Notes: generated from the letters alone by a model not told the origin. Shown: positions 1,000 to 34,552, numbered from the stretch's first letter. The stretch: DNA of 36,055 nucleotides from an uncultured bacterium (GCA_964534375.1 CAZHPN010000046.1:1-36055); one strand, 5' to 3'. Numbers and translations: made by a program.

Positions 1000-3738
1000 A
1001 TGAGCCAGGATCTATCCCTCGGATATTCCTTCGACAAGTTGGACCGCGATCTCGACTACCTGATGCGCTGTTTTCGGGAAACGCTGGCCGAATTGCACGA
1101 GGAGGCATTGTCGCGCGCGCTGCCGTGGATCGGCGAGCAATCCGCGGCGCCCGACTTGGGCGCGGAGGCCGGTCTGCAGGCGTTTTCGCTTTCGTTCCAA
1201 TTGCTCAACATGGTCGAGGAAAACGCGTCGGCGCAGGCCCGGCGGCAGGTCGAGCGCCGGGGCGACTCCGCCGCCGAACCCGGCCTGTGGGGGCAGCGGC
1301 TCGGCGAACTGCGCGAGCGCGGATACGCGCTGGCGCTAATCGCCGCCGCGCTGCCGGCGATTTGGGTCGAGCCCGTGTTGACCGCCCACCCGACCGAGGC
1401 CAAGCGCACCTCGATTCTCGAACAGCACCGCCAATTGTACCTGCTGCTGTTCAAGCGCGAGAACCAAATCTGGACGCCGGGCGAACAGGACGCGATTCGC
1501 GAACAGATCAAGGCCGCGCTCGAAAAAATCTGGCGCACCGGCGAAATCCGGCCGGAAAAGCCCGATGTCGCGTCCGAGCGGCGCGGCGTGCTGTATTTTT
1601 TGCGCGACGTTTTCCCCGAGGTGCTGCCGCGGCTCGACGGCCGGCTGCAACAGGCCTGGCGCGACGCCGGCGGCGACCCGACAGCGCTGGCCGGTCTCGG
1701 CAAAATGCCGCGGCTCACCTTCGGCGTCTGGGTCGGCGGCGACCGCGACGGCCACCGGCAGGTGACGGCGAAGGTCACCGAAGAAACGTTGGTCGCGTTC
1801 CGGCAGGCGGCGCTGACGGTGCACGACCGGAACCTGCTCGTTCTGGCGCAACGGCTGAGCCTGACTTCGATGCGGCAGGAGCCGCCGCCGGCGCTGGCGA
1901 AGGCGATTCGCGAGTCCGCCGACCGCATGGGCGAGGCTGGCCGGCGCGCGGTGCAGCGCAATCCGGACCAGCCGTGGCGGCAGTTTCTCAATCTCGTACG
2001 GGCCAAACTGCCGCAGCCCGAGGCGTGCACGATCGGCCTCGACCCTTACCAATACCGCCGGCCCGCGGAGTTTCTCGCCGATCTGCGGCTGCTCTACGAA
2101 TCGCTGATCGAGATCGGCGCACCGCGGCTGGCCGAACAGGAAGCGGCGCCGGTCATGCGCGCGGCGGAGGTTTTCGGCTTTCACCTTGCCGCCCTCGACA
2201 TCCGCCAGAACAGCGCTTTTCACGACCGGGCGCTGGCCCAATTGCTCAATGCGGCGGGCCGCAGCGGCGCCGAATATCTCGCGTGGCCGGCGGACAAGCG
2301 CCTCGCCTGGCTGACGCGCGAACTCGAAATGCCGCGGCCCCTCGCGCCCGGCGCGGTTGACCTCGGGCCGGAGGCTAAAGAGACGCTCGACTGTTTCCGC
2401 CTGCTGGCCAGCCACGGCGAGGAATACGGCTACGACGGCCTAGGCTCCTTGATCGTCAGCATGACGCGATCCGCCGCGGATTTGCTGACGGTCTACCTTT
2501 TGGCGCGCGAGGCCGGACTCGTGCGGCCGACGCCAGCGGGGCCGGCGTGCCGGCTGCCGGTGACGCCCCTGTTCGAGACCGTCGAGGATCTGCAAGCCGC
2601 GCCGGCGATTCTGCGCGAGTTCCTGCGTTGCCCATTGACGAAGAACAGCCACGTTTCGCTCGATGGCCGGCCCGTGCAGCAGGTGATGCTGGGTTACAGC
2701 GACAGCGCCAAAGCGGCGGGCCTGTTGTCGGGGCAGTGGGCGCTGCACCAGGCGCAGGAGACGCTGCACGAGGTGGCGCGCGCCGAGGGCGTGGGGCTGC
2801 GCTTTTTTCACGGCCGCGGCGGGACGATCAGCCGCGGGGCGGGGCCGACGCACCGTTTTCTGGAGGCGTTGCCGCACGGTTCGCTGGGCGGAGCGTTTCG
2901 CGTCACGGAGCAGGGCGAGACGATCAGCCAGAAGTACGCCAACCTGAACACCGCCGCGTACAATCTCGAACTGCTGCTCGCCGGGGTGACGGCGACCACG
3001 CTGGCGCATGCGCAGCCGCCGCCCGACGACGGCGAATTGGCGGGCGCGGTGCAAGAGTTGGCGACGCGCAGCCAGGCGGCGTACGCGGCGCTGCTCGACG
3101 AGCCGGGGTTCATGACTTTTTTCGGCGAGGCGACGCCGATCGACGCAATCGAGGAAGCGCGCATCGGTTCGCGGCCGTCGCGCCGCACGGGCCAGCGGAC
3201 GCTCGGCGATCTGCGCGCGATTCCGTGGGTCTTCAGTTGGCACCAGGCGCGGTTTTATCTGCCGGGCTGGTGGGGCGTCGGGACGGCGCTCGAAGAATTG
3301 TCGCGGCGCGAGCCGGCGGTTTTCGCGCGCCTCGCTGAAAAATCGCGGACGTGGCCGGTCTGGCGGTATTTGCTGATCAACATCGAAACCAACTTGATGT
3401 CCGCCGACCTCGAGGTGATGCAGGAGTATGCCGCGCTGGTGAAAGACGACGAAATCCGCCGTGGCTTCATGGACAAGATCGCAGACGAATTCCGCAGCGC
3501 CGGCCGGATGCTCGAACGCGTGCTTGGCGGCGGCTTCGAAGCCCGCCGGCCGCGGCTGTGGGGCACGCTGGTGCGGCGGGCGCCGGCTTTGCGCGCGCTG
3601 CACACTACCCAGATCGCCCTGCTGACCGAGTGGCGCGGCCTCCTCGCCGCCGGCGACGCCGCGGCCGCCGCGGAGAGGCTGTCGCGCGTGCAGCTTTCGA
3701 TCAACGCGATCGCCAGCGGGCTGCGCACGACGGGATAA
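1000..3738 (+). CDS. ppc: Phosphoenolpyruvate carboxylase (bacterial type), about 912 aa
   Basis: Motifs VLTAHPTE, GGDRDG, QQVMLGYSDSAK, FHGRGGTISRG, LRAIPWVF and C-terminal GLRTTG. Start placed at ATG 1000 (MSQDLS); the upstream extension crosses a terminator. Confidence 0.96.
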   Translation: MSQDLSLGYSFDKLDRDLDYLMRCFRETLAELHEEALSRALPWIGEQSAAPDLGAEAGLQAFSLSFQLLNMVEENASAQARRQVERRGDSAAEPGLWGQRLGELRERGYALALIAAALPAIWVEPVLTAHPTEAKRTSILEQHRQLYLLLFKRENQIWTPGEQDAIREQIKAALEKIWRTGEIRPEKPDVASERRGVLYFLRDVFPEVLPRLDGRLQQAWRDAGGDPTALAGLGKMPRLTFGVWVGGDRDGHRQVTAKVTEETLVAFRQAALTVHDRNLLVLAQRLSLTSMRQEPPPALAKAIRESADRMGEAGRRAVQRNPDQPWRQFLNLVRAKLPQPEACTIGLDPYQYRRPAEFLADLRLLYESLIEIGAPRLAEQEAAPVMRAAEVFGFHLAALDIRQNSAFHDRALAQLLNAAGRSGAEYLAWPADKRLAWLTRELEMPRPLAPGAVDLGPEAKETLDCFRLLASHGEEYGYDGLGSLIVSMTRSAADLLTVYLLAREAGLVRPTPAGPACRLPVTPLFETVEDLQAAPAILREFLRCPLTKNSHVSLDGRPVQQVMLGYSDSAKAAGLLSGQWALHQAQETLHEVARAEGVGLRFFHGRGGTISRGAGPTHRFLEALPHGSLGGAFRVTEQGETISQKYANLNTAAYNLELLLAGVTATTLAHAQPPPDDGELAGAVQELATRSQAAYAALLDEPGFMTFFGEATPIDAIEEARIGSRPSRRTGQRTLGDLRAIPWVFSWHQARFYLPGWWGVGTALEELSRREPAVFARLAEKSRTWPVWRYLLINIETNLMSADLEVMQEYAALVKDDEIRRGFMDKIADEFRSAGRMLERVLGGGFEARRPRLWGTLVRRAPALRALHTTQIALLTEWRGLLAAGDAAAAAERLSRVQLSINAIASGLRTTG

Positions 3739-3896
3739 GGAAGAAGGAAAAAGTAAAAAGGAAAAAGGAAAAAGTAAGACAAAGCAGACGCGCGGTTCCC
3801 GACTTGGGCGCTGGCCGATTCGGCAAGGCGCAGGCGACGGCGCCGCCCCACGTAGTAGCTTACGCCCGGCAATTTTTCCTTTTTCCTTGTTCCTTC
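3736..3896. repeat. Heptamer array (AAAGGAA-like x6, 3736-3777) with inverted arm (TTCCTTn x3, 3876-3896)
   Basis: TAAGGAA GAAGGAA AAAGTAA AAAGGAA AAAGGAA AAAGTAA ... TTCCTTT TTCCTTG TTCCTTC; the first unit contains the ppc stop codon. Confidence 0.85.
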
Positions 3897-3960
3897 TCGC
3901 GTGCGCGAGGGTGCGAATTTCGTTGAAAATGCTTGCGCGCACGTTTAGTATCCGCTCCCG

Positions 3961-4950
3961 ATGACGCACCGTATTTCCCCGCGATGGTGGCCCTTGTTGG
4001 CGGTCGGTTCCCCGGTCTTGGCGCCGTGGCTGGCCGTGCAAACCGTCCGGTTCCAAACGGGCGTGCGCGAGGCCGCGGCGCGGAACGCCAAACGGCTGCG
4101 CAAGGCGAAGCGTCTGGATTTGCCGGAACTGCAAAATCTCGAAATGACCGTCGTTGTCGAAGAGCGGCACAGCGAGGGATTCATCGGCGACGCCGCGGTT
4201 TCCTACCTCTTGCGCAACGAAAACGGCGGGATGCTGATGGACCTCGGGTTCGGCGCGGACCGACCGGCGTTCCGCAACAACGCGGCGCGGCTCGGCATCG
4301 GCCCGGGCGATTGGGGCGCGGTGTTCGTCTCGCACCTGCATCCGGACCACATGGGCGGGCTGAAGGCAGCGCGCCGCAAGACGATCGATTTTCCGCGCTC
4401 GTTGGCGCCGAAGCCGCGAATCCCGTGTTACACGCCGGCGCCGTGCGCCGCGACGAACCTGATCGTCGACGAGGCGACGGCGGCGCGCGTCTTGCCCAAC
4501 GGCTTCGCCACGACCGGGCCGCTGGCGCGCATGCTGTGCTTCACCGGTGTCACCGAAGAGCAGGCGGTCGTGGCGCGGCTCAAGGACAAGGGTCTGGTCG
4601 TGATCCTGGGGTGCGGCCATCCGACCGTCGAACTCGTGCTGCGCATGGTGCGGCGGCTGTCGGACGCGCCGATTTACGCGGTGGCCGGCGGGTTGCACCT
4701 GCCAATCGTCGAGTCGCGCGGCGCGCGCTTCGGCATCCAATTCCAACAGATCGTCGGGACGGGCAAACCCTGGTGGCGGAAGATCGGCGACGACGATCTG
4801 GACCGCACGATCCGCGCGCTCAATGAATCCGGCGCAAAACGGCTGCTGCTTTCGGCGCACGACTCCTGCGACTACGCGCTGGAACGGATCGCCGACGCCG
4901 CGACCGCGCGAGTCGACGTGCTGACGGCTGGGGTCACGTATTGCTTGTGA
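3961..4950 (+). CDS. MBL-fold metallo-hydrolase (COG1237-like) with hydrophobic N-terminus
   Basis: SHLHPDHMGGL (HxHxDH) motif plus GCGHP, GGLHL and SAHD. Confidence 0.85.
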   Translation: MTHRISPRWWPLLAVGSPVLAPWLAVQTVRFQTGVREAAARNAKRLRKAKRLDLPELQNLEMTVVVEERHSEGFIGDAAVSYLLRNENGGMLMDLGFGADRPAFRNNAARLGIGPGDWGAVFVSHLHPDHMGGLKAARRKTIDFPRSLAPKPRIPCYTPAPCAATNLIVDEATAARVLPNGFATTGPLARMLCFTGVTEEQAVVARLKDKGLVVILGCGHPTVELVLRMVRRLSDAPIYAVAGGLHLPIVESRGARFGIQFQQIVGTGKPWWRKIGDDDLDRTIRALNESGAKRLLLSAHDSCDYALERIADAATARVDVLTAGVTYCL

Positions 4951-5008
4951 TTCTCCGCGCGGCGCGTGGAACCCGACGCCGGCCATGGATGAACGGGAAG
5001 AGCAGGCC

Positions 5009-5090
5009 TCACGCGGAGACGCGGAGTTCGCGGAGAATCCGAGCAACGCAGCCGCTGGCAATCCTCCGCGCCGTCCGCGTCTCCGCGTGA
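5009..5090. repeat. 30-bp inverted repeat built from CGCGGAG units (8-9 nt period)
   Basis: TCACGCGGAGACGCGGAGTTCGCGGAGAAT (5009-5038) matches the reverse complement of 5061-5090 at 26/30 positions. Confidence 0.9.
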
Positions 5091-7394: not shown

Positions 7395-7460
7395 AACCGC
7401 GCCGCGCCGAACCGAGCAAACTCTCGGAACCGTGCCGGAGCACCGGCGGATGAGAAACTG

Positions 7461-8774
7461 ATGTTGGTCGGACGCCGTTTGCGGCTCGCCTTGGGCGTTG
7501 CCGCCCTGTTCGCGCTCGGCGTAATCTTCGCGTTTTCCGGCTGCGAAAAAGTTTCGCCGCGACCGCCGGCGCCGCCAGCCGCGGCGCCGGAAGGGTCGCC
7601 GCCGGCCGCGGCCGACGTCGCGGCGCCCGAGTGGTCGCCCGAGCCGCCGGCGCCGACGCCGGCGGGGTCGCCGATCGAGCACGTCGTGCAAGGCGGCGAC
7701 ACGCTCGCGACGGCGCTGGCCGGGACCGGGCTGGCGGCGGCCGAAATCGCCCGCGTGACCGCCGCGCTGGAACGCGTGCGTTTTCCGTTTCAGAAAATCA
7801 AGAAAGACCAGGAGTTCACGCTTTGGCTCGACGACGCCGGCGCGTGCGTCGGGTTCGACTACCGCTTTTCGCCGGCGCTGACGTACGAGGCGCGCGTCAA
7901 AGAGGGCGAACTCGTCGCGCAAAAAGTCGAACTGCCGACAGCCGTGCGGATCGTGAAGTTCGGCGCGCGCGTCGAAAGCAGCGTCTACGAAGCCATTTTG
8001 CAGCACGGCGAAACCGACGGACTGGCGTCGCTCGTTTCCAACCTGTTCGCGTGCGACATCGATTTTTACGCCGATCCGCGCAAGGGCGACGGCTTCAAGT
8101 TGATTTTCGAAAAGGCGTATTTGCCCGACGGCCGGGCGCGCGGTTACGGCCGCCTGCTCGCCGCGGAGTACGACGGCGCCGTCACCGGCCGTCAACGCGG
8201 TTTCTGGCTGGAGCACGATAGCGAAGACGTCCGCGGTTTCTACGACGAACGCGGCCGGATGCTGCGCAAGACGTTTCTGGCGGCGCCGCTCGACACGATG
8301 CGCGTCACCAGCGCCTTCGGCATGCGTCGCCACCCCGTGCTCGGCCGGGCGATGATGCACAACGGCGTCGACTATGGCGCCCCGGTGGGCACGCCCGTCT
8401 GGGCGGTCGCCGACGGCGTCGTACTGTCGGCGGGCGGCGCCGGCGCGGCCGGCAACCTGATCAAGATTTTTCACGGCAACGGCCTGGTGACGATGTACAT
8501 GCACTTGTCGCGGGTGATGGTGCGGCAGGGTCAGCGCGTCCGCCAGCGGCAGATGATCGGCCGCGTGGGCGCGACGGGCCGCGTCACCGGGGCGCATCTC
8601 GATTTCCGCGTGCAGAAAGACAACCATTTTCTCAATCCGCAGCGGTTGAAAATGATCGCGACGTCGCTGCGCAACGTGCCCGAAGCCGAGCGTCCGCGCT
8701 TCGACAAAATCATGGCGGAAATGCAGGCGCAGTTGGAAACGATCGAGATCGACGCGCCGGCGAAAGTCGAGTGA
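7461..8774 (+). CDS. M23 family peptidoglycan DD-metalloendopeptidase (MepM/OapA-like), probable lipoprotein
   Basis: Signal peptide ending FSGC, Pro/Ala linker, LysM-like VQGGDTL segment, HNGVDY and HLDF zinc motifs. Confidence 0.9.
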   Translation: MLVGRRLRLALGVAALFALGVIFAFSGCEKVSPRPPAPPAAAPEGSPPAAADVAAPEWSPEPPAPTPAGSPIEHVVQGGDTLATALAGTGLAAAEIARVTAALERVRFPFQKIKKDQEFTLWLDDAGACVGFDYRFSPALTYEARVKEGELVAQKVELPTAVRIVKFGARVESSVYEAILQHGETDGLASLVSNLFACDIDFYADPRKGDGFKLIFEKAYLPDGRARGYGRLLAAEYDGAVTGRQRGFWLEHDSEDVRGFYDERGRMLRKTFLAAPLDTMRVTSAFGMRRHPVLGRAMMHNGVDYGAPVGTPVWAVADGVVLSAGGAGAAGNLIKIFHGNGLVTMYMHLSRVMVRQGQRVRQRQMIGRVGATGRVTGAHLDFRVQKDNHFLNPQRLKMIATSLRNVPEAERPRFDKIMAEMQAQLETIEIDAPAKVE

Positions 8775-8791
8775 ACGGGCCCGGGGAGTAG

Positions 8792-8917
8792 TGCGGAATG
8801 CGGACTGCGGAATGCAGAATGCGGAATGTGGAACGCGGAACGCTGAGTGCAGAATGCGGAGTGCGCAGCGAACTGGCGACGCGGATTCACTCCGCATTCG
8901 CCATTTGCCATTCCGCA
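8792..8917. repeat. Heptamer array (TGCGGAA-like x11, 8792-8868) with inverted arm (TTCCGCA-like x4, 8890-8917) between convergent genes
   Basis: Units read directly; the inverted arm abuts the pgm stop codon (8918-8920). Confidence 0.92.
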
Positions 8918-10726
8918 TTATTTCAGCAGTTCCTGCTCGATTCTCTTCATGTCGGCTTCGACGCGCGCGGCGTCCTGATCGACCTGGGCGCGAGCGGCGA
9001 AATCGCCGTGGTGCGCAATGTAGTGTTTGATCTTGGGCTCGGTGCCGGAGGGGCGAATCGTCACGCTGCTCAGGCCGTCGTCGCCGAGAACGAACGCCAG
9101 CACGTTGCTGCGTTCCAGGCCCAGCGGCTTCTTTACGCCTGTTTTTAGATCCCAGTGCGTGTCGGTTTCGCGGTCGACGACCGCCGTCGTGGCCAGGCCG
9201 GCGATGGACCGCGGCGGCTCGCGGCGCAAGTCATCCATCAATTTTCGCATCTGCTCGGCGCCGGCTTCGCCTTCGAGGAACACCGAAAACTGGCGGTCGA
9301 CGAAATATCCGAATTTTGCCCACAACTCGGCCTGCGCCTGCAACAGCGTCTTGCCGCGGGCCTTCCAGTAGGCGGCGAGTTGCGCGACGCCGGCCGCGCC
9401 GGCCCCGCTGTCTTTGTCGCGCACTTCGGCCGTCAGCATATAGCCGATCGATTCCTCGCAGGCCATGACCATGGAGGTCGGCGGCTGCCCGGCCATTTCG
9501 CGCCGGTGGATCTCCGCCGCGATGTTCTTGAAGCCGACGAGCAGGTCATCGACGATCTCGACGCCGTGCGCTGCGGCGATGCGGCGCAGCATTCTGGTCG
9601 TCACCTGCGTGGTCAGGACATAGGCGTCGGCGGGCAGGGCGCCGCGTTCGCGCCGGCGCGTCAGCACGAAATCGAGGAGCAGCGCCTGGACTTCGTTGCC
9701 GGTCAGGTGCGCGAAGTTCCCGCGGCCGTCGGGCGCGGCGACGCCCAGGCGATCGGCGTCGGGGTCGCTGGCGATCGCCAGGTCGCCCCCGATTTCCTTG
9801 GCGAGCGCAATGGCGATATCCAGCACCGCCGGCATTTCCGGATTGGGATAATTGCGCGGTACGGTCGGGAAATGGCCGTCCATCGCGGCCTGTTGCGGAG
9901 GCAGGCGCACGTCTTTGAAACCGAGCGCCGCGAGCACCGGCGGCACGACGGTCACGCCCGTGCCGTGCAGCGGCGAGTAGACGATGGTCACGTCGCGTTC
10001 GTCGCAGAGCGGCAGATCGCGGCAACTCATGGCGACGTAGGCGCGATCGACGCGGTCGTCGAGAATCTCGACCAGGCCCTTTTCGATCGCCTCCTTCAGC
10101 GGCAGGCGCCCGATTTTGGCGACCCGTGCGACTTCCTCGAGCACCGCCCCGTCGTGCGGCGCGACCATTTGTCCGCCGTCTTCCCAGTAGGCCTTGAAGC
10201 CGTTGTCCGACGGCGGATTGTGGCTGGCCGTGATGACGGCGCCGGCGATCGCGTGCAGGTTTCGCACCGCGAACGACAGCAGCGGCGTCGCGCGCGGCCC
10301 GTCGAACAGGTACACATGCAGCCCCGCGGCGGCCAGCGTCTCGGCCGTGATGCGCGCGAACTCGGCTGACGAAAGGCGCACGTCGCAGGCGACGACGACG
10401 CCGCGCCGGGCGTAGGAACCGTCGCGATCCTGGCTCTTGATGTAGGCCGCCAGCCCCTGCGCCGACTCGCCGATCGTGCGCGCGTTCATCCGGTTCGAGC
10501 CCACGCCCACCAGGCCGCGCCGGCCGCCGGTGCCGAAGGGGATGATCTGATAGAACGCGTCGATCAGCGGCGTCGGCCGCAGTAAATCGACGACGCCGCC
10601 GCGGAACTCGGCGTAGTCCGGATCGGTCATCCACTTCACGGCTCGGCGGCAGGTCTCGTCGTTGATCGCGCCCGCATCGCGCAGGGCGTCGAGCACTTTC
10701 ACATAGCGGTTCGCGTCATCGGCCAT
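8918..10726 (-). CDS. pgm: Phospho-sugar mutase (phosphoglucomutase/phosphomannomutase, alpha-D-phosphohexomutase family)
   Basis: FGTGGRRG, TASHNP (phosphoserine), SDPDADR (metal), EESIG, RPSGTEPKIK. Confidence 0.93.
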   Translation of the reverse strand: MADDANRYVKVLDALRDAGAINDETCRRAVKWMTDPDYAEFRGGVVDLLRPTPLIDAFYQIIPFGTGGRRGLVGVGSNRMNARTIGESAQGLAAYIKSQDRDGSYARRGVVVACDVRLSSAEFARITAETLAAAGLHVYLFDGPRATPLLSFAVRNLHAIAGAVITASHNPPSDNGFKAYWEDGGQMVAPHDGAVLEEVARVAKIGRLPLKEAIEKGLVEILDDRVDRAYVAMSCRDLPLCDERDVTIVYSPLHGTGVTVVPPVLAALGFKDVRLPPQQAAMDGHFPTVPRNYPNPEMPAVLDIAIALAKEIGGDLAIASDPDADRLGVAAPDGRGNFAHLTGNEVQALLLDFVLTRRRERGALPADAYVLTTQVTTRMLRRIAAAHGVEIVDDLLVGFKNIAAEIHRREMAGQPPTSMVMACEESIGYMLTAEVRDKDSGAGAAGVAQLAAYWKARGKTLLQAQAELWAKFGYFVDRQFSVFLEGEAGAEQMRKLMDDLRREPPRSIAGLATTAVVDRETDTHWDLKTGVKKPLGLERSNVLAFVLGDDGLSSVTIRPSGTEPKIKHYIAHHGDFAARAQVDQDAARVEADMKRIEQELLK

Positions 10727-11417
10727 CGGCGACTCCCAATTTTTTCAACACGTCGTGCGTATCGGCGAAATTTTCGAACGCGATGTCGGCGCCGAGCGCG
10801 GTCAGTTGGGCGGCCGTGAAATTGAGCGTGCCGACGCCCACGGCGGTGCAACCGTTTTCTTTGGCGGTCCAGACGTCGCGATCGGTGTCGCCCACAACAT
10901 AAACATCGGCGCCCGGCGACGCCACGCGGCCCAGCAGCCGCGACGCCCGCTCCAGCGCGATCGGCACCAGCGCCGGCCGATGCTCGTGATCGTCGCCGAA
11001 CGCGCCAAACGGGAAAAAGCGCCAGAGATCGAAATGCAAGAGTTTGATCCGCGCGCCGCCGCGGACGTTGCCGGTCAGCAGACCGATCGAGACGTCGTCG
11101 CGGCCGCTCAGCGCTTCGAGCAATTCGCGGACGCCGGGGTAAAGCACGGCGTTCGTGCTTTTTGGCATCTCTTCGGCGAGGCGCTCGATGTAAATCTCGA
11201 CGAGCCGCGCGATTTCGGCGTCGACATCGGGGAAGGTCAGGCGGTGGCAGGCCAACGCTTCGCGGAAGATCGCCGGATCAATTTTGCCTTGAAACTGAAA
11301 GCCGTCGAAGGCGTCGGCGACGCCGTAGCGTTCGGCAAAAACGCGGGCCATCGCCCGCAGGCCGGCCCCGCCGGAGAGCATGAGCGTGCCGTCGATGTCA
11401 AAGAGGACGAACTTCAT
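10716..11417 (-). CDS. HAD-family hydrolase (phosphoglycolate phosphatase-like)
   Basis: LFDIDGTL motif I, LLTGN motif II, VGDTDRD motif IV; overlaps the pgm start by 11 nt. Confidence 0.9.
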   Translation of the reverse strand: MKFVLFDIDGTLMLSGGAGLRAMARVFAERYGVADAFDGFQFQGKIDPAIFREALACHRLTFPDVDAEIARLVEIYIERLAEEMPKSTNAVLYPGVRELLEALSGRDDVSIGLLTGNVRGGARIKLLHFDLWRFFPFGAFGDDHEHRPALVPIALERASRLLGRVASPGADVYVVGDTDRDVWTAKENGCTAVGVGTLNFTAAQLTALGADIAFENFADTHDVLKKLGVADGR

Positions 11418-11432
11418 GGGGCGAAGCCAGTT

Positions 11433-11708
11433 GATTGCGGATTGCGGATTGCGGATTGCGGAATGAAGAAAAGAGGCCGCGGGCGGGCTCGGCGGGCGCG
11501 CCGATAGGACCTATAGGTCGTATAGGTCCTATAAGACCTATAGGCCGGTCGCCGTCGGGAGTTTGCCCCGGACCCCGAACCTGCCTGCGCCAAGGCTACG
11601 GCAAGCAGGCCTCGAATCCTGAATCTCGAGCGCGGATTGTCGCTCGGCCGCGGAAATCTGTGAAATCTGTGAAATCTGTGGATGCCCGAACCCCGAACCC
11701 CGAACCCC
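11433..11708. repeat. Mosaic of short tandem arrays: (GATTGCG)x4, (ATAGGACCT-like)x4.5, CCCGAAC-like units split by a 30-bp palindrome, (GAAATCTGT)x3, (CCCGAAC)x3
   Basis: Modules at 11433-11460, 11504-11544, about 11567-11630 (palindrome 11580-11609), 11653-11679 and 11685-11705. Confidence 0.92.
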
Positions 11709-11719
11709 GTCATCGCGCG

Positions 11720-16190: not shown

Positions 16191-16635
16191 TCAGAATCTC
16201 TTTGAGTTCCGACATGAAATCGTCGACGTCTTTGAACGAGCGGTAGACGGACGCGAAGCGCACGTAGGCGACGGGGTTCAAATCCCGCAGTTGCTTGACG
16301 ACGTATTCGCCGATCTCGGCGCTGGAGATTTCGCGTTCGCCCGATTCGGAGAAATGCCGCTCGATGTCGGTGACGAGTTCCTCCATCCGGTCGATGGAGA
16401 TGGGCAGTTTCTCGCAGGCGCGGCTGATGCCGTTGAAGATTTTCTGGCGTTCGAATGGCTCGCGGCGGCCGTCCTTTTTCACGACGTGCGGCAGGTTTTC
16501 CTCGATGCGTTCATAGGTCGTGAACCGCCGGGCGCACTTGAGGCATTCGCGCCGGCGGCGGATCACGTTTCCTTCCTTGCGGAAACGCGAATCCATCACT
16601 TTGCTTTGATCGGAACCGCAATACGGACAACGCAT
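16180..16635 (-). CDS. nrdR: Transcriptional repressor NrdR
   Basis: [24 protein letters not shown]-cone [28 protein letters not shown] spacing favours ATG 16635 over 16641. Confidence 0.97.
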
Positions 16636-16651
16636 CGGCATGCTCCTTAAA

Positions 16652-16737
16652 TGGGGAAAGCACGAACAAGAAACAGAGAAGTTGGCCGGTCGCCCCGGGC
16701 CTTTTTCCTTTTTCCTTTTTACTTCTTCCCTTCTTCC
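16652..16737. repeat. Second copy of the AAAGGAA heptamer array (minus strand, overlapping the rpiB stop) with a degenerate pyrimidine counter-arm
   Basis: Minus strand GGAAGAAGGGAAGAAGTAAAAAGGAAAAAGGAAAAAG shares AAGTAAAAAGGAAAAAGGAAAAAG exactly with the array after ppc. Confidence 0.75.
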
Positions 16738-17165
16738 AGGGCGGCGATCTTCGCCACTCGTTTCGCGTGCCGCCCACCGTCAAAAGGCGTCTCCAGAAAG
16801 ATGCGCACGATATCCCGCGCGAGGTCGGGCCCGAGCACGCGCCCGCCGAGCGCCAGCACATTGGCGTCGTTGTGCCGCCGCGCCATCCGCGCCATGTACT
16901 CGTTGGTGCATAGGGCGCACCGCACGCCGGGGACCTTGTTGGCGACGATGCTCATGCCGATGCCCGAGCCGCAGACCAGCACGCCGAACTCGGCCTCGCC
17001 GCCGGCGACCATTTCGGCCGTCAGTTTGCCGAAGTCGGGATAATCGACGCTTTCGTCCGTGTGCGTGCCGAGATCCGTCACCTCGCCGCCGAACTCGACG
17101 ATGTAGTCTTTCAGCATTTCCTTGAGCGCCAACCCGCCATGGTCGCAACCGATGACGATTTTCAT
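16719..17165 (-). CDS. rpiB: Ribose 5-phosphate isomerase B
   Basis: [47 protein letters not shown]. Confidence 0.97.
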
Positions 17166-18968: not shown

Positions 18969-18997
18969 CTGTTAGCATCGCCTACGTGGAGTGTCAA
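18969..18997 (-). promoter_or_regulatory. Probable sigma70 promoter for the TPR-PNP genes
   Basis: TTGACA, 17-nt spacer ending in TGC (extended -10), then TAACAG. Confidence 0.5.
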
Positions 18998-19003
18998 GGT
19001 AAC

Positions 19004-19089
19004 GATTGCCAATTGCCGATTGCGGATCGCGGATTTTTTCGGCGCAGACATGCAGCACAATCCGCAATCCACAATCCGAAATCGGCAAT
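19004..19089. repeat. Inverted heptamer arrays (GATTGCS-like x4.5 / CAATCCG-like x4.5)
   Basis: 19004-19035 and 19058-19089; same unit family as the array at 11433; ends 5 nt from the glyA-gcvT stop. Confidence 0.9.
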
Positions 19090-19094
19090 ATTCG

Positions 19095-22000
19095 TTATCG
19101 GCCCGGCCAACGTTTGATGATTTCCGCCGCCACCGGCAGCGGCAGGCGATCGCCGGCTTTCATTTCATCCGCCGCCTTCTTGCCGGCGGCCGACGGCACG
19201 ATCAGGATCGGCCCGAGCTTGCCCTTCTTGATCTGCACGTAGGCCTGACCGATCAACAGGCCTTCGCCGTCGGTCGCGCAACTGGTCACCCAACCGAAGC
19301 ACGCGCCGGTGGCGTCGATGATCGGGTCGCCGGCCTTCAGCGGCCGGGCGCCCTTTGTCGGGACCTTGAAGCGCACGACCTTCATCTCGCGTTTGGCGGT
19401 CTTGGCGCGATACGCCGCTTTGCCGACGAAGAACGGCTTGTGCATCTTGACGAACGTCGCGAAGCCGGCGCTCGTCGGCATGATGTCGTGCGGCCCGGCG
19501 AGTTCGTGGCCGTAGAGCGGCAGCCCGGCCTCCAGACGCAGCGAATCGCGCGCGCCCAAGCCGATTGGTTTCACGCCGAGGTCGGCGCCGGCGGCGAGGA
19601 TCGCGCGCCAAAGGTCCGGCGCTTGGTCGGGGTGGACGAAGATTTCGAAGCTAAGCGGCTCGCCCGTGTAGCCCGTGCGCGAAAGGCCGACGTCGAGGCC
19701 GGCGATCCGCGCGTACATGCAGTGGAACCGTTTGAGCGCTTGCAGCTTCGCGCGGTCGCGTTCGTCGACCAGCTTGAGCAACGTCGGGCGCGACTGCGGG
19801 CCCTGCAGCGCCACGTCGACGCGCCGCTCGTCGCCCCAGCGCGCGTCCTTCAAGTTGCGCAATATCGCCGGCTTGGCGAGACCGCGCTGCGGGGCCGCCT
19901 CGTCGAGCAGCGCGCGTCCTTCGTTCACCGCGCACAGCCACGCCCAATCCTTGGCCTCGTTGGCGGCGTTGACGACGATCAGGTACCGCTGCGCTTCGAA
20001 ACGATAGACGAGCAGGTCGTCGAGCAGATTGGCGGCGTGGTCGAAGAAGTGGTTGTACTGGGATTCGCCGACCGTCAAATCGCCGACGTAATTGCCGCAC
20101 ACGAGATCGACGAAGTTTCGCGCCTGCGGACCGCAAACGTCAAAGCAGCCCATGTGCGTCACGTCGAAAATGCCCGCCGCTTTGCGCACGGCGTTGTGCT
20201 CTTCGATCGTCGATGTATACCGCACGGGCATCTCGTGGCCGGCGAAGGGGACGATTTTCGCGCCGAGCTTCTGATGTTCCGCGAATAGCGTCGTCCGCTT
20301 GAGCGGCTCTTCCTTTTCCTCCCAAACAAAAGGCGTCTTTTTCGGCGCCGGCGCCTTTTTGCACAGCGCCGCCTGGCCGATGAAATACGGCCGCGCCAAG
20401 TCGATGCGGTCGAGCAGTTCGGCGCCCGAGCGGCCGATCAGCGCCGGGTCGGGGTTTGGCAGTTTGGCGTCTTGTTCGCGGCAGAAATCGCAGTCGGCGT
20501 TGAGTTGCTCGACAATCACCGGGCCTTCGATTTTCGCGGTGACGTCGTTCGGCTCAAACAGCGTGTAGCCATCAGCCAGACCGCGCAGCCACCGCAGCAG
20601 CGCCTTGAGATTCGCGACCGGCGCCTTCAGCAGATAGCCGTCGCGGCGCGATTCGCCCTTGACCGGCAACGTGGTGACGACCAGCGGCGAAATGACCTTG
20701 CCGGCGCCATCGAGCGCGACGGTCTCGATCATGTCGCCCTCGCCCAGCTCGCTGAGATCGGCGGCCACGACATCTTGCAGAAATGCGCGCGCTTTGGGGC
20801 CGAGGATCTTGAACAAATGCGAGCCCTCGGCGCGGTCGAGGTACGGGTAATCCGGGTAGCCCGACAGCTTGGGCGCCGTGACCGCCAGCTTGCGGCAGAA
20901 CGCGTCCACGTCTTCGCTGACCGCGTTCAGTACGGCCGGATCGATCTTGCCGCGCGGCAACGGGCGCGTCTCGCCGTCGTACGCGAACGGCTCGACGGCG
21001 ACGAGGATGCGCTGGATCAGCCGCGCCACCTCGCGTGCTTCCGCCTCGCCGGCGCCGCGCTGCGTGATCCACGGCGTGCCCAGTCGCAGGCCGGTCGCCA
21101 GCGGCGTCTCTTTGTCGCCGGGAATCGTGTTCTTGTTGAGGATGATGCCGGCCATTTCGAGAATCTGCGCCGCCGGATCGCCGTACAGCATCGCGCCGTT
21201 TTTCTTCGCGAACGGTTTGAGGTCGATCAGCAACTTGTGCGTATCGGTGCCGCCGTACGCGAGCCGCACGCCGAGTTTCTGGAATTCGTCGACCATCGCC
21301 TTGGCGTTGGCGGCGATCTGCCGCTGCACTTGTTTGAACGCGTCGGTCTGCGCCAGCTTGAACGCCACGGCAAGCGCCGCGATCGTATTCATGTGCGGGC
21401 CGCCCTGCTCGCCGGGGAAGACGGCCGCGTCGATCTTCTTCGCCCTTTCCTCGTCGTGGGTCAGGATCACCGCGCTGCGCGGGCCCATTAGCGTCTTGTG
21501 CGTGGTGAAGGTGACAACGTCGCACCAGTCGATCGGGTTCGGGTAAAGGCCGGCGATCACCAGGCCGGCCGGATGCGCGATGTCGGCCATCAGAATCGCG
21601 CCGACCTCATCGGCGATCGCGCGGAATTTCGCGAAGTCGGGCGCCCACGGATACGACGTGTAGCCGGCGATGATCATCTTCGGCTTGGTTTCCTTCGCCA
21701 GCTTCATGATCGCGTCGTAGTCGAGCAGTTCGGTTTTCGGATCGACGCTGTAGGCGACGATGTTGTAGCGCTTGCCCGTCATGTGGAATTTGCTGCCGTG
21801 CGACAGGTGGCCGCCTTCCATTAGCGACAACCCCATCACCGTGCCGCCCATCGGCACGAACGCCTCGTAGACGGCGATGTTCGCGGCGGCGCCCGAGAGC
21901 GGCTGGACGTTCGCGTAAATCTTCTCTGCCGGCGTCTTCGCTGTGGCGAAACATTCCGCGGCGCGGCGGCGGCACAGCGACTCGATCAAGTTGACGTAGG

Positions 22001-22304
22001 CGTTACCCTTGTAAAACCGGCGGTCGCCGTAACGGCGATACGCGGCCAGGCGCTGCGGCAAGTCGGCCAGATCGGCCGTGCTCATCAGCGTGTTTTCGCT
22101 GGGCGGGTAGCCCTCCGCGTAGAGGTTGGTGAACGAACTGTCGAGAACTTTGCGCACCGGCCACGCGCAAATGCTTTCCGACGGGATGAGGATGATGTGC
22201 CGCGCCTGCCGCTCGTCCTCGCGGGCGATCAGGTCGGCGATCAGCGGGTCGGCGGCCGTGAGGTCGTCGTCAAAAAGAAAGTCGCACGGATTCTTCTTCG
22301 GCAT
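19095..22304 (-). CDS. glyA-gcvT: Serine hydroxymethyltransferase - glycine cleavage T-protein (aminomethyltransferase) fusion, about 1069 aa
   Basis: SHMT: YAEGYP, NVQPLSG, GGHLSHG, ADIAH, TTHKTLMGPR, FPGEQGGP, LNKNTIP. GcvT: KRTTL, FDVTHMG, DDLLVY, NAAN, LQGP, SRTGYTGE, GLGARDSLRLEAGLPLYGHE. One uninterrupted frame with GAGGTGGAG RBS. Confidence 0.95.
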   Translation of the reverse strand: MPKKNPCDFLFDDDLTAADPLIADLIAREDERQARHIILIPSESICAWPVRKVLDSSFTNLYAEGYPPSENTLMSTADLADLPQRLAAYRRYGDRRFYKGNAYVNLIESLCRRRAAECFATAKTPAEKIYANVQPLSGAAANIAVYEAFVPMGGTVMGLSLMEGGHLSHGSKFHMTGKRYNIVAYSVDPKTELLDYDAIMKLAKETKPKMIIAGYTSYPWAPDFAKFRAIADEVGAILMADIAHPAGLVIAGLYPNPIDWCDVVTFTTHKTLMGPRSAVILTHDEERAKKIDAAVFPGEQGGPHMNTIAALAVAFKLAQTDAFKQVQRQIAANAKAMVDEFQKLGVRLAYGGTDTHKLLIDLKPFAKKNGAMLYGDPAAQILEMAGIILNKNTIPGDKETPLATGLRLGTPWITQRGAGEAEAREVARLIQRILVAVEPFAYDGETRPLPRGKIDPAVLNAVSEDVDAFCRKLAVTAPKLSGYPDYPYLDRAEGSHLFKILGPKARAFLQDVVAADLSELGEGDMIETVALDGAGKVISPLVVTTLPVKGESRRDGYLLKAPVANLKALLRWLRGLADGYTLFEPNDVTAKIEGPVIVEQLNADCDFCREQDAKLPNPDPALIGRSGAELLDRIDLARPYFIGQAALCKKAPAPKKTPFVWEEKEEPLKRTTLFAEHQKLGAKIVPFAGHEMPVRYTSTIEEHNAVRKAAGIFDVTHMGCFDVCGPQARNFVDLVCGNYVGDLTVGESQYNHFFDHAANLLDDLLVYRFEAQRYLIVVNAANEAKDWAWLCAVNEGRALLDEAAPQRGLAKPAILRNLKDARWGDERRVDVALQGPQSRPTLLKLVDERDRAKLQALKRFHCMYARIAGLDVGLSRTGYTGEPLSFEIFVHPDQAPDLWRAILAAGADLGVKPIGLGARDSLRLEAGLPLYGHELAGPHDIMPTSAGFATFVKMHKPFFVGKAAYRAKTAKREMKVVRFKVPTKGARPLKAGDPIIDATGACFGWVTSCATDGEGLLIGQAYVQIKKGKLGPILIVPSAAGKKAADEMKAGDRLPLPVAAEIIKRWPGR

Positions 22305-22403: not shown

Positions 22404-22478
22404 AACACAGAGGCCACACAGGAAAGCACGAAAGCCCGTCATTCCGAATTTCTCTGTGTCCTCTGCGCCCTCTGTGGT
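22404..22478. repeat. Nonamer array (CTCTGTGTC CTCTGCGCC CTCTGTGGT) with a degenerate inverted ACACAGAG arm
   Basis: 22452-22478 versus about 22404-22421, in the divergent spacer between glyA-gcvT and the GNAT gene. Confidence 0.75.
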
Positions 22479-24709: not shown

Positions 24710-24879
24710 TTTGACAGGATCAACGGGATCAAGGGGATCAGCGCGGCTATCTGTTCGAAGCGTTCGCGCCGCGACAAAATATGACGAGCGTATTGGTCGG
24801 GTCACATTGTTCACTGTTCATTGTTCACTGTTCACTGTTCGCTGCTCGCTGATCCCGTTGATCCTGTTGATCCGTCAAA
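24710..24879. repeat. About 33-bp inverted nonamer arms (GGATCAACG-like) enclosing a heptamer array (CAYTGTT x5 plus 2 degenerate units)
   Basis: Left arm 24710-24743, right arm 24847-24879, inner array 24805-24853; lies between convergent genes. Confidence 0.92.
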
Positions 24880-24907: not shown

Positions 24908-26161
24908 TCAATGCTTGAAGCTGCGCTGCCCGGTGAAGGCCATCGCGGCGCCGTACTCGTTGCAGGCTTCGATCGCTTGATAGTCGTTGATCGAGCCGCC
25001 GGGTTGAATGACCGCCGCGACGCCTTCGCGCAGACCCACCTCGATGCCGTCGCGGAAAGGGAAAAAAGCATCTGAGACCATCACGCTGCCGGGCAGGCCG
25101 CCCTTCTTTTCTTTGACCTCTTCCTCGATCGCCCGTTGGTGGTCTTCATCGGCCAGCGCGCTGAAGATGACGCCGTGGCGTTCGAAGGCGAAGCGGTCGC
25201 ACAATTTGCGATAGGCCTTGTCGCGAGCGATTTCGGCGACGCCGACGCGGTCCTGTTCGCCCGTGCCGATGCCGACGGTCACGCCGTCTTTGACGTAAAT
25301 CACCGAGTTGGACGTTACGCCCGCCTCGACGACCCAGCCGAACAACATGTCGGCGAATTCCCAATCGGTCGGCGCGCGTTCGACGCGGTAGGTTTTGCCC
25401 TTGTAGACGGTTTCGGCGAGCAGCAGGTCTTCCGGCCGGCGGGCGGCCGGCGAGAACGACACCTGCGCAATGACGCCGCCGTCGATCAGCGATTTGAAGT
25501 CGAGGAAGCGTTCGGGCGCGAATGTCTCCAGCCGCGTCATGTTGCCGATTTTCATGATCCGCAGGTTTTTGCGGCGGGCGAGCGTTTCGACCGCGCCATC
25601 CTCGAATTCCGGCGCGATGACCACCTCGGCGTAGCGCTCGGCGATGGCCTCGGCGGTCGCGACGTCGACGGGCCGGTTGAGCGCGATGCAGCCGCCGAAC
25701 GCGGCGACGTGATCCGCGAGATCGGCCTTGAGATACGCTTCGACGAGTCGGTCGGCGATAGCGACGCCCGACGGGTTGTTGTGCTTCATGATCGCGACGG
25801 CCGGCCGGTCGGCGAGATAACGCAAGATGTTGAGCGCGTTGTCGGCGTCGGTCAGGTTGATCTTGCCGGGATGCTTGCCGAATTGCAGCAACTCGGCGTC
25901 GGACACGAGGTAGCGGCCCGGCGCGATGGTCGTCACTTCGCCGAGCGTCAGGTTGCCGTTGGTCAGGCGATAGAGCGCGGCTTCCTGGCCGGGGTTTTCG
26001 CCGTAGCGCAGGCCGAGCCGCTCGCCGTCGATTTCCCAGGCGACCTTCTCGTATTGCAGCGACGTGCGCTCGCCGTCGTCGTCGATGAACGCGATTTCCA
26101 TGCGCGGCGGAAAGTGGTCGTTCACGATCGTGTGATACATCTTTTTGAGGTCGTCGGGCAT
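24908..26161 (-). CDS. purH: Stand-alone AICAR transformylase domain (PurH C-terminal part)
   Basis: LRYGENPGQ, MKHNNPSGVA, AFGG, EVVIAP, SNSV, SDAFFPFRD, QPGGS, TGQRSFKH. Confidence 0.88.
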   Translation of the reverse strand: MPDDLKKMYHTIVNDHFPPRMEIAFIDDDGERTSLQYEKVAWEIDGERLGLRYGENPGQEAALYRLTNGNLTLGEVTTIAPGRYLVSDAELLQFGKHPGKINLTDADNALNILRYLADRPAVAIMKHNNPSGVAIADRLVEAYLKADLADHVAAFGGCIALNRPVDVATAEAIAERYAEVVIAPEFEDGAVETLARRKNLRIMKIGNMTRLETFAPERFLDFKSLIDGGVIAQVSFSPAARRPEDLLLAETVYKGKTYRVERAPTDWEFADMLFGWVVEAGVTSNSVIYVKDGVTVGIGTGEQDRVGVAEIARDKAYRKLCDRFAFERHGVIFSALADEDHQRAIEEEVKEKKGGLPGSVMVSDAFFPFRDGIEVGLREGVAAVIQPGGSINDYQAIEACNEYGAAMAFTGQRSFKH

Positions 26162-26170
26162 CGGCGGCTC

Positions 26171-26857
26171 CTACCGGTTGCGCAACTTGTAGACGTTCGG
26201 GACGGCTTCCGCGTACTGCTTCGCCAGGTAGGCGGAAATGGCGGCGTCGTAGCTCGCCGTAAGGGCGAACGCCTTGCGCGCGTACGCGAAGCGCTCGGCG
26301 AGGGTGAGGGCGCCGCCCCCGGCGCGCAGTTGGTCGAGCAGATGGGGATAATCGTCGGGATCGACGACGGACGCCACGCGGAGGAAGTTTTTCGCCGAGG
26401 CGCGGACCATCGTCGGCCCGCCGATATCAATATTCGCGCGGGCGTGCTCGACCGTCGCGTCCGGCTGCGCGACCGTCGCCGCGAACGGGTACAGATTGAC
26501 GACGATCAGGTCGAACGGCAAGGCGCCGGTGCGCTGCAAGTCCGCCTGGTGGCTGTCGTTGTACGTCTCGGTGAGCAGGCTCAGATAGACCTTGAAGTCG
26601 AGCGTCTTCACCAGGCCGCCTTGCGTTTCCGGCTGGCCGGTGTAAGCGGAAATCTGGCTCAGATGCGTTTTCGCCCGCTGGCCGAGGATCCCCACGAGTT
26701 GCGCGTGCGTGCCGCCGGTCGAATAAAAATGGATATCCGGAATAATATCGAGCAGGCCCGGAATCAACGTTTCCATGCCGCGCTTGTCCGACACGCTCAC
26801 CAACGCACGCTTGATCGCCACGCGGTCGTCCGCCTCGCGCACAATGTTCACCGCCAT
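26171..26857 (-). CDS. purH: Stand-alone IMP cyclohydrolase (MGS-like) domain (PurH N-terminal part)
   Basis: ALVSVSDK, STGGT, GGLVKTL, VVNLYPF, NIDIGGPTMVRASAKNF, KAFALTASYD. Confidence 0.88.
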   Translation of the reverse strand: MAVNIVREADDRVAIKRALVSVSDKRGMETLIPGLLDIIPDIHFYSTGGTHAQLVGILGQRAKTHLSQISAYTGQPETQGGLVKTLDFKVYLSLLTETYNDSHQADLQRTGALPFDLIVVNLYPFAATVAQPDATVEHARANIDIGGPTMVRASAKNFLRVASVVDPDDYPHLLDQLRAGGGALTLAERFAYARKAFALTASYDAAISAYLAKQYAEAVPNVYKLRNR

Positions 26858-30970: not shown

Positions 30971-31143
30971 CGCTGCCGGCACGCACGCGGTTTCAGCCTG
31001 AAGCGGGCGCCCCTGAGGCATTTCGATAGCTTACATCCGGATTTTCCCGATATGGCTAAAGCTGCGCGATTGGCATGATGCAGTCGGAGAGCCGAGAATG
31101 AAGCCTTGTGAAAGAATTTACCAGAAAGCGTCAGGTGTGCGCC

Positions 31144-31617: not shown

Positions 31618-31623
31618 AAAATT

Positions 31624-33699: not shown

Positions 33700-33895
33700 T
33701 CAACCTCCGATCGCGCCGCACGGGCGCGTCCTGCCTGCGATTCTTGAAAATAATTTAAGCACGGCCGGCGGCGAGGAAACCGGGGCCGCGGATGACGAAG
33801 CCGCCGATCGACCGGCGCGGCGACCGCCAGTCCCGCCCGCCGGATTTGCCGAGCCGCGAGCGTCGTCTTATCTTGCCGGCATAGGAGGACTCACA

Positions 33896-34369
33896 GTGCA
33901 GACGATTACTCCCTTTCTTTGGTTCGACGGCAAAGCCGAAGAGGCCGCGAAGTTCTATACTTCCATTTTCAAGCGTTCGAAGATCACCTCCGTGTCGCGT
34001 TACGGCGAGGCCGGACCCGGGCCGAAGGGCGCCGCGATGTCCGTCACCTTTCAGCTCGACGGGCGCGAATTCGTGGCGTTGAACGGCGGCCCCCAGTTCA
34101 CGTTCTCGCCGGCCATCTCGTTTTTCGTGAATTGCCGGACGCAGCGGGAAATCGACGACCTGTGGCGGAAGCTGTCGCGCGGCGGCAAGAAGCTGCAATG
34201 CGGCTGGCTCACGGACAAGTTCGGCGTGACGTGGCAAATCGTTCCGGAGATCCTGGGCAAGCTGTTGCAAAGCAAAGACGCCAAGAAATCGGCGAATGTC
34301 ATGAAGGCCATGTTGAAGATGATCAGGCTTGACATCAAGAAATTGAAGAAAGCGTACGAACGCGGATGA
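33896..34369 (+). CDS. VOC / PhnB-like (3-demethylubiquinone-9 3-methyltransferase family) protein
   Basis: ITPFLWFD..AEEAA.FY, LNGGP.F.FSPAISF, CGWL.DKFGV.WQ; AGGAGG RBS before GTG 33896. Confidence 0.92.
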   Translation: MQTITPFLWFDGKAEEAAKFYTSIFKRSKITSVSRYGEAGPGPKGAAMSVTFQLDGREFVALNGGPQFTFSPAISFFVNCRTQREIDDLWRKLSRGGKKLQCGWLTDKFGVTWQIVPEILGKLLQSKDAKKSANVMKAMLKMIRLDIKKLKKAYERG

Positions 34370-34372
34370 GTT

Positions 34373-34416
34373 CCTGGGGCGTTGCCCCAGGCTGGGTTAG
34401 TGCGGGCCGTTGGCCC
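34373..34416. repeat. REP-like double hairpin
   Basis: CCTGGGGC-GTT-GCCCCAGG and GGGCC-GTT-GGCCC, both with GTT loops, 3 nt after the VOC stop. Confidence 0.7.
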
Positions 34417-34552
34417 TGCAGCATGTCCGGAGCCGCGCGGCCGCGAAGTCTGCCGGCGTCTCAACCTTTCAGTCTTCCAGCCTTACAGCCTGTTTCCTTG
34501 CCCGCTCCGTTGCGCTATGATTCATTCGTTGTCTTTTCCACGGAGGCGCGGC

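Follow-up and report, generated by a model that had tools for sequence, protein, structure and literature searches.

The heptamer repeats of heterocystous cyanobacteria are known as short tandemly repeated repetitive (STRR) sequences. Other bacterial heptamers include GGGAATC of Xanthomonas and GGGGAYT of Nostoc (PMC4692102), TAACTGA of the Beggiatoaceae (PMC4679880), and the four- and five-copy heptanucleotide elements of Geobacter metallireducens (PMC2700814), and the over-representation of heptamers in bacterial intergenic DNA has been known since at least 2007 without an accepted cause (PMC4692102). In excerpts, these papers each consider a single unit or a handful of them, and the explanations offered are G-quadruplexes, regulators, or slippage. 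Heptamers also accompany a gene in Coxiella burnetii, where, according to excerpts of its description, the intervening sequence (IVS) in helix 45 of 23S rRNA encodes S23p (PF05635/TIGR02436), forms a 28-bp stem that is cut by RNase III, and carries tandem heptamers, in strain-variable number, beside the S23p open reading frame (ORF) (PMC4990558). The present study concerns the short-unit tandem arrays that lie between the genes of a 36,055-nt stretch of DNA from an uncultured bacterium (CAZHPN010000046.1 of assembly GCA_964534375.1; contig C46, hereafter the window). Our analysis suggests, with slightly better than even chances, that these arrays are gene-less, insertion-derived relatives of gene cassettes, built like the stems of 23S rRNA intervening sequences.

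Among described systems, the ORF-bearing 23S rRNA intervening sequence comes closest to these elements. As far as the excerpted account of the Coxiella IVS extends, the likenesses are stem-forming ends of ~28 bp, heptamers beside an ORF for a four-helix bundle, and selfish behavior. The Coxiella ORF is decaying; in the present genome, members of that protein family are located between heptamer arms. Among the differences, cleavage by RNase III is a feature of the Coxiella IVS, whereas the stems here are predicted only. The window elements also lie between protein-coding genes rather than in rRNA, contain no ORF, and belong to a set of hundreds with many units. With the known intergenic heptamer repeats, as excerpted, the arrays share tandem 7-nt units in few to tens of copies, many loci, and some inverted pairs, and the marks of the cyanobacterial STRR class (tandem heptanucleotides, intergenic, at many dispersed loci) are found here as well; absent from those excerpts are the ~100 heptamer families that this genome combines with 9- and 10-mers, its polarity rule, its constant arm length, and the tie of repeat period to gene family. 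Dispersed heptamer repeats are already known, and a paper tying them to the gene families treated below was not found among the open-access papers and preprints searched. Repetitive extragenic palindromic (REP) sequences and the REPINs mobilized by REP-associated tyrosine transposases (RAYTs), as well as miniature inverted-repeat transposable elements (MITEs), resemble the elements in being dispersed extragenic palindromes that occur in both orientations and at gene ends, some with conserved loops (here the GAATGGC family), and differ from them in that the elements have no consistent Y1 transposase partner, arms of tandem short units, and mostly unique interiors. To our knowledge, REP sequences have neither arms made of tandem units nor fixed periods that go with non-transposase genes.

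Abundance, units, and build of the arrays

The window belongs to a 6.3-Mb assembly of 381 contigs (65% G+C, estimated 94% complete), in which a crude codon-usage score called 4826 genes, with imprecise starts, covering 85% of the DNA. Arrays were located with Tandem Repeats Finder (TRF) in the window and in the whole genome, and five dinucleotide shuffles of the 923 kb of intergenic DNA delimited by these crude calls served as the control for chance. Intergenic period-7 arrays number 700 against a shuffle mean of 30.4 (23-fold), and period-9 arrays 364 against 38.2 (9.5-fold). Periods 14 (133 versus 6.6), 18 (52 versus 2.2), and 21 (64 versus 1.2) are likewise in excess, and periods 8 and 10 stand approximately three-fold above shuffles (for period 8, 142 real and 41 shuffled). 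The excess over chance is restricted to intergenic DNA, the density of period-7 arrays being 74.9 per 100 kb there and 5.4 in coding DNA. The window arrays are members of a population, spread over the whole genome, that numbers well above a thousand short-unit repeat elements and comes in two forms, solo arms and arm-loop-arm hairpins. For 159 of 589 period-7 arrays (39 in control flanks) and 59 of 227 period-9 arrays (control 14), an inverted partner of two units is present within 250 bp, whereas direct partners are hardly enriched (61 versus 38 and 11 versus 10, respectively). Inverted pairing is real, yet it involves only about one-quarter of arrays. An earlier note on this DNA had described the arrays as usually paired, which holds within the window, where six of nine sites have a pair of inverted arms, each built of tandem copies of a single short unit, but not for the genome.

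The same note had called the unit sequences unrelated. On the contrary, they fall into recurring families, most heptamers share a GAA/GGA core, and each window unit is part of a family that recurs in the genome. Specifically, 704 intergenic heptamer arrays reduce to 104 canonical units, and the top nine hold 454 of the arrays; the commonest are AAGGAAA (77), GAATGGC (76), GAATGCG (56), and GAACAGT (56), followed by CGGGATT (51), GCGGATT (43), GAAGTCA (30), and GAACAGC (22). When units are written on their purine-rich strand, 63 of the 104 families, which comprise 564 of the 704 arrays, include GAA or GGA, while shuffling the letters of each unit gives 41 +/- 4 families and at most 53 in 1000 trials. 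The distribution of families is patchy. Allowing one mismatch, GATTGCG x3 has 88 matches here, 33 in genome G006, one each in G009 and G016, and none in 13 other genomes of the class, including G003, which is of the same genus as G006; the backwards control gives zero everywhere. Summed contig depth in runs X3-X6, which include two RNA libraries, is 10-524 at 11004-11670 and mostly below 15 elsewhere, the GATTGCG array being common to contigs of many different contexts; depth there is no indicator of expression of the locus, and GATTGCG is widespread in the wetland community.

Two further regularities concern the build of the elements. Of 104 inverted pairs with a gap of at most 220 bp, 98 open with the purine-rich arm and 1 with the pyrimidine-rich arm, and 5 are ties; counted by unit family (41 families) the figures are 35, 1, and 5. 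Because an inverted pair reads alike on both strands, purine-first is a true polarity of the element. Moreover, the median arm is 28 bp at period 7, 26 bp at period 9, and 27 bp at period 10. The copy number of period-7 arrays peaks at 4.0-4.7 and falls sharply above 5, whereas coding arrays decay steadily from the detection limit. A correspondence of approximately five copies to a pentameric protein was considered and rejected, as the 9- and 10-mers have ~3 copies and it is the arm length in base pairs that is constant; single-strand (RNA) recognition of the purine strand was likewise rejected for solo arrays, which have no strand bias in co-directional spacers (162:158).

In the GAATGGC family, hairpins span 52-85 bp, most of them 65-80 (for example, C74:25602-25674 and C149:732-811), and a loop of ~21 nt, TTCGGGCGGCGTCGGCAATTC or its complement, is conserved in 14 of 16 listed pairs and occurs in both orientations. 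They are a REP-like multicopy family, distinct from the unique-loop elements of the window. Composite elements with GGATCAACG/ACAGGATCA units also have interiors common to several copies.

Array period and small-gene families

Three families of small genes are associated with the arrays: the TIGR02436 four-helix bundle, a four-helix bundle followed by the TIGR04258 suffix domain, and GxxExxY. A link to TIGR02436 and GxxExxY genes, which the earlier note had brought up, is real in this genome and in its class. All five TIGR02436 genes here (all matches above E = 1e-20), one of them interrupted by TGA, lie between inverted heptamer arrays. Period-7k arrays are present on both sides of these five and of only 14 of 1534 other small genes (Fisher p = 1.6e-10), and most of those 14 differ in unit between left and right or run in the opposite polarity. 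In the class (17 genomes), a period-7k array is the best array on both sides at 27 of 31 TIGR02436 loci and is found on one side at the remaining four, one of them at a contig end; among the 29 of 31 cassettes that have period-7k arrays on both sides, 22 are purine-first, 4 are opposite, and 3 are other.

The suffix-domain genes have a different period. Three proteins of ~195 residues in this genome combine a weak four-helix-bundle match with TIGR04258, and arrays of period 9, 18, or 27 adjoin their genes; in the class, a period-9k array is present on at least one side of suffix-domain loci in 6/6 cases and on both sides in 4/6. An alignment scan of species genomes for the suffix domain returned more than 588 relatives, of which 80 from many phyla, 55-78% identical, were kept. 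At the 73 loci with both flanks available, a period-9k array lies within 300 bp in 41 and no array in 19, and period-7k arrays number just 3. Their units center on ATAGGACCT, ATGGGACCC, and AAAGGACCC, and ATAGGACCT, which flanks suffix-domain genes in other phyla, is also the unit of the window array at 11504-11544. Identities of 55-78% between this lineage and Verrucomicrobiota, Planctomycetota, Acidobacteriota, Nitrospirota, Desulfuromonadales, Chloroflexota, and Bacteroidota (proteins L081-L160) are unusually high for such distances, which suggests that the suffix-domain four-helix-bundle proteins have spread horizontally. For GxxExxY, both intact genes have adjoining 10-mer arrays, and among the period-10 arrays of the genome their units, CGCGAATGCA and the AATCTGCGCC type, form the leading families.

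Several cassette units are also abundant as gene-less families, namely AAGGAAA, AATGCGG, CAGCGAA/CACTGTT, and ATGGGACCC; cassettes with the first three are in the same genome (L004, L005, and L003, respectively). For the window units GATTGCG, GGATCAACG, GAAATCTGT, ACGCGGAG, and CTCTGTG, no matching cassette was found. The window elements enclose no TIGR02436, TIGR04258, or GxxExxY gene, and a profile search found no TIGR02436, GxxExxY, or Y1-transposase match on contig C46, in agreement with the earlier statement that the window holds no such gene. The possibility that interiors are decayed four-helix-bundle genes was rejected: with 21 proteins and 55 interiors genome-wide, the best tblastn match (E = 0.048) did not surpass the reversed-sequence control (0.008). 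No function is known to us for the four-helix-bundle and GxxExxY families, both of which are large. The TIGR02436 proteins of this genome weakly match NF033474, the model of Avd, an accessory protein of diversity-generating retroelements (E = 7.5e-6 to 6e-4), and PF05635 is described, in an excerpt, as Avd-like (PMC10053308); however, the protein scores of 20-26 bits are far under the cut-off of 80. Next to these genes neither a reverse transcriptase nor a template/variable repeat pair was noticed, though no search aimed at them was made.

The regularities amount to simple, testable rules: each gene family has its own repeat period, the arm rich in purines leads, arm length is ~27 bp, and insertions fall at gene junctions. 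The genome is an extreme case, with more than 1000 arrays and ~10 such genes. If the link is causal, both orphan protein families would gain a candidate nucleic-acid target, and the arrays would point to a kind of mobile or self-spreading element without a transposase.

Origin of the gene-less arrays

Orthologous sites were compared with relatives, as the earlier note had proposed, and filled and empty forms exist for two window spacers. Metagenome contig L039, 80.7% identical over 8988-11402, has neither spacer 8775-8917 nor spacer 11418-11719: in place of the latter (302 bp, four arrays) its stop codon and next start codon overlap by one base, and in place of the former (143 bp) its convergent genes overlap by ~7 bases. 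Spacer 11418-11719 is only 9-20 bp long in G004, G003, and G006. The remaining window array sites coincide with synteny breaks, apart from 16642-16718, which is taken up below. Between two array spacers that bound it at both ends, segment 22540-24687 (+) encodes a GNAT acetyltransferase and a 521-residue protein without a Pfam match; it has no DNA match in seven family relatives, and the neighboring blocks adjoin in G005 and G007.

Together, the empty orthologous sites and the patchy distribution favor selfish DNA that arose by insertion over conserved regulators. In the reading that we favor, gene-less copies would have entered, or grown at, junctions that are spacer-free in relatives, mostly near stop codons, and the elements would act as selfish, lineage-specific DNA. 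The arms of elements and of cassettes share one build (a fixed period, 26-28 bp arms with the purine-rich arm first, and common unit families), with a period that goes with the gene family: 7 nt for TIGR02436, 9 nt for the TIGR04258 suffix domain, and, here, 10 nt for GxxExxY. Because period, units, polarity, and arm length are shared, the gene-less arrays are tied to the gene-bearing cassettes, from which they may derive or on which they may depend. If transcribed, paired copies would fold into a stem of ~27 bp, which would be the design of the RNase III-cleaved stem in ORF-bearing 23S rRNA intervening sequences, and such RNA stems may be processed. The small proteins of the cassettes may recognize the repeat units, and the elements themselves may be mobile.

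Several observations weigh against this reading. Roughly three-quarters of arrays are solo, and the more than 1000 arrays face only ~10 members of the gene families. Recurrence is limited to the arrays themselves, the interiors of the window hairpins having no other copy in the genome; because these interiors are unique, the window elements are not simple multicopy miniature elements, and the conservation of copies over their whole length that defines a MITE is not found. The exception is a short module at ~11568-11630, which has up to three other matches, with copies placed at C16:14455 and C111:327. Abundant units such as GAATGGC, GATTGCG, CGGGATT, and GGATCAACG have no gene cassette with the same unit in this 94%-complete assembly, and no four-helix-bundle remnant was detected in the 55 interiors beyond the reversed-sequence control. 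Unique interiors, many solo arrays, and units without a resident gene thus speak against a simple picture of cassettes plus miniatures. At 16642-16718, the spacer of G004 and G001 is of similar length but lacks an array, and an extra gene is present there in four other relatives, so that this site looks like growth or replacement in place and not like a clean insertion. An identity of 70-81% does not allow target-site duplications or exact insertion ends to be read. From the same population, two further assemblies align without a gap over 11.7 and 13.7 kb (99.99% identity), and contigs of DNA runs X3 and X4, which break at arrays and cover them poorly, show three small indels, none in an array; because no array changes between population samples, no current activity is shown. 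Finally, protein identity and unit distance are correlated among 29 class cassettes (Spearman -0.37, reached by 0/5000 permutations), a correlation equally expected from joint descent.

A different reading, possible but to our minds rather doubtful, is that small sequence-specific proteins recognize the arrays and that the architecture of the protein fixes the period (7 for the plain four-helix bundle, 9 with the suffix domain, 10 for GxxExxY here), each pair of protein and repeat being a self-propagating module without a recognizable transposase that has seeded hundreds of gene-less arms and hairpins at gene junctions. If true, this reading would explain together the bacterial heptamer excess and the origin of rRNA intervening sequences.

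Replication slippage on 7- or 9-nt units in place, with inverted pairs tolerated or homogenized and with neither a mobile element nor a dedicated protein, is improbable. It would account for the unique interiors, for the predominance of solo arrays, and for the array-less spacer of like length that relatives have at 16642-16718; in addition, excerpts of the literature ascribe the bacterial heptamer excess to polymerase slippage (a hypothesis quoted in PMC4692102) and report that heptamer copy number varies among Coxiella strains (PMC4990558). However, slippage alone does not predict ~15 same units at hundreds of loci, a purine-rich first arm in 98 of 104 pairs, an arm of 26-28 bp regardless of period, or the hump at 4-4.7 copies where coding DNA shows monotonic decay. 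Nor does it predict the exclusive tie to three gene families, the new 143-bp and 302-bp spacers between genes that overlap in a relative, or the lack of length change among population samples. Because arm polarity is fixed, arm length constant, and the units recurrent, slippage fits poorly, as the earlier note had judged.

Of similarly low probability is the view that the arrays are host regulatory or structural elements (global-regulator sites, mRNA 3'-end stabilizers, or terminators) kept for the benefit of the cell. Their placement is in keeping with it: within the imprecision of the called gene starts, array density per kilobase is highest in convergent spacers (2.26, against 1.48 in tandem and 1.0 in divergent ones), and 26% of arrays have a stop codon within 20 bp, compared with 8% that are near a start. 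Contigs of two RNA libraries cover four elements, including 8766-9013, 16634-16879, and 18993-19233, which is a weak hint of transcription, as carry-over of DNA is possible, and in excerpts on G. metallireducens paired four- and five-copy heptanucleotide repeats are annotated as putative global-regulator sites (PMC2700814). Nevertheless, orthologous sites do not conserve the elements, being empty in L039, G003, G004, and G006; a unit family abundant in one genome is absent from a genome of the same genus; elements split operon genes that overlap in relatives; and the solo arrays of co-directional spacers are, as noted, without strand bias. Canonical terminators were also considered and rejected, since scan counts were near background (35 versus 24 +/- 5 and 33 versus 23 +/- 5) and no site in the scan spans a whole array hairpin. 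The short GC-rich stem, 3-8-nt loop, and T run of an intrinsic terminator are not seen, window loops being 22-113 nt, and Rfam has no match in the window at the gathering score.

A spread of REP/REPIN-like palindromes through a Y1 transposase (RAYT or IS200-type) is hardly credible as the source of the arrays: although the GAATGGC loop is conserved in both orientations, as in REPINs, and an IS200-like gene (L014, C324:235-717; NF033573, E = 1.6e-19) lies between inverted AGGCCGC / GGCCTTC arrays, inverted arrays are found at only 1/7 Y1_Tnp matches, with no matching pair at the other six, the L014 unit AGGCCGC is rare (five arrays), and the window elements have no conserved loops, so that the RAYT link raised in the earlier note finds no support and a RAYT or IS200 partner is rejected as a general explanation.

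Elements and other features of the window

The earlier note had named arrays in nine window spacers, eight of which TRF confirmed; clear arrays are present in 8 of the 16 window spacers of at least 77 bp, as delimited by the crude gene calls. An inverted-repeat search of the window gave five pairs of arms of 24-32 nt that are 78-93% complementary, with a sixth, weaker pair at 22404-22474. Predicted RNA folds of the paired elements are well under those of shuffled sequences (z = -6.7, -6.1, -5.8, -3.4, -2.7, and -2.5), whereas the solo arrays show no such folding.

The first element starts within the TAA stop codon of the phosphoenolpyruvate carboxylase gene. Its purine-rich left arm, AAGGAAA x5.4 at 3737-3777, and its pyrimidine-rich right arm, TTTTTCC x3.3 at 3873-3895, enclose a unique 95-bp loop (3778-3872) without another copy in the genome; the inverted pair is 3730-3759/3873-3902 (30 nt, 87%), and the hairpin at 3735-3897 folds with z = -2.7. 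The ACGCGGAG-type 8-mer hairpin at 5009-5090 has arms 5009-5038/5061-5090 (30 nt, 87%), a 22-nt loop, and z = -6.1, and its TRF arrays are ACGCGGAG at 5011-5036 and CTCCGCGT at 5064-5088. The TGCGGAA element at 8792-8919 occupies an entire convergent spacer: a left array (TGCGGAA x10.6, 8792-8865) is followed by a loop of ~25 nt and a CATTCGC/CATTCCG right arm (TRF, CATTCGC at 8895-8913), with an inverted pair at 8797-8828/8888-8919 (32 nt, 78%).

Spacer 11418-11719 departs from the layout claimed for it in that it holds four solo arrays and no arm pairs: GATTGCG x4.3 (11433-11462), the near-palindromic 9-mer ATAGGACCT x4.6 (11504-11544), GAAATCTGT x3.1 (11653-11680), and CCCGAAC x3.6 (11685-11709). 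One RNA contig joins 11462 to 11663, with only 22 letters to one side of the joint; it was set aside as probably derived from a different locus or organism. At 16652, where a left arm had been reported, there is no array; the array is confined to 16700-16737, consists of CCTTTTT x4.3 (16700-16729) and CTTCTTCC x2, and extends into the 3' end of rpiB, whose protein is three residues longer than that of G004.

The GATTGCS-type heptamer hairpin at 19003-19089 has arms 19012-19035/19066-19089 (24 nt, 88%), a 30-nt loop, and z = -5.8, with TRF arrays at 19005-19023 and 19058-19089. A weak CACAGAG / CTCTGTG(NN) pair lies in a divergent spacer at 22404-22474 (z = -2.5), with CTCTGCGCC x2.6 at 22452-22474. 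The composite hairpin at 24717-24873 (z = -6.7) combines outer 9-mer arms of GGATCAACG (24717-24743/24847-24873; 27 nt, 93% complementary) with an inner one-sided CAYTGTT x5.3; its TRF arrays are GGATCAACG at 24717-24740, a second outer array at 24850-24873, and TGTTCAC x5.3 at 24808-24844, and sister copies with a related interior are found at C35:30192, C48:33341, and C240:6371. The ninth array, of period 8 at 34465-34491, is doubtful (TRF score 33, 78% matches): it is indistinguishable from chance, does not rise above the shuffled period-8 background, and has a fold z of 0.0. The start of the same spacer, 34370-34420, carries ~50 bp with an inverted repeat, GTTCCTGGGGCG...CCCCAGG, that has approximately four to five other genome copies and is independent of any tandem array.

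A Pfam scan of 29 window proteins returned housekeeping families only. Their genes include those for phosphoenolpyruvate carboxylase, a fatty-acid oxidation enzyme, phosphoglucomutase, and a HAD hydrolase, the nusB-rib operon, and nrdR, rpiB, purH, panB, folE2, and folD. In a single 1069-residue ORF at 19095-22304 (-), a serine hydroxymethyltransferase domain and a GcvT-type aminomethyltransferase domain are combined, and relatives match along the length of the ORF. The purH gene at 24908-26857 (-) appears as two ORFs, with AICARFT_IMPCHas profile positions 73-311 in 24908-26161 and positions 1-69 plus the MGS domain in 26171-26857; a frameshift, a stop codon, or a true split could explain this. 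At the contig start, a perfect coding repeat, CAACGACGA x6, spans 1-54, and 1-701 is 89% identical to C41:4222-4931, a paralogue. At the other end, the ~95 terminal bases (35962-36055) recur at 88-99% identity in at least seven other contigs (C128, C334, C60, C102, C81, C186, and C13) and probably belong to the end of a dispersed repeat at which the assembly broke off.

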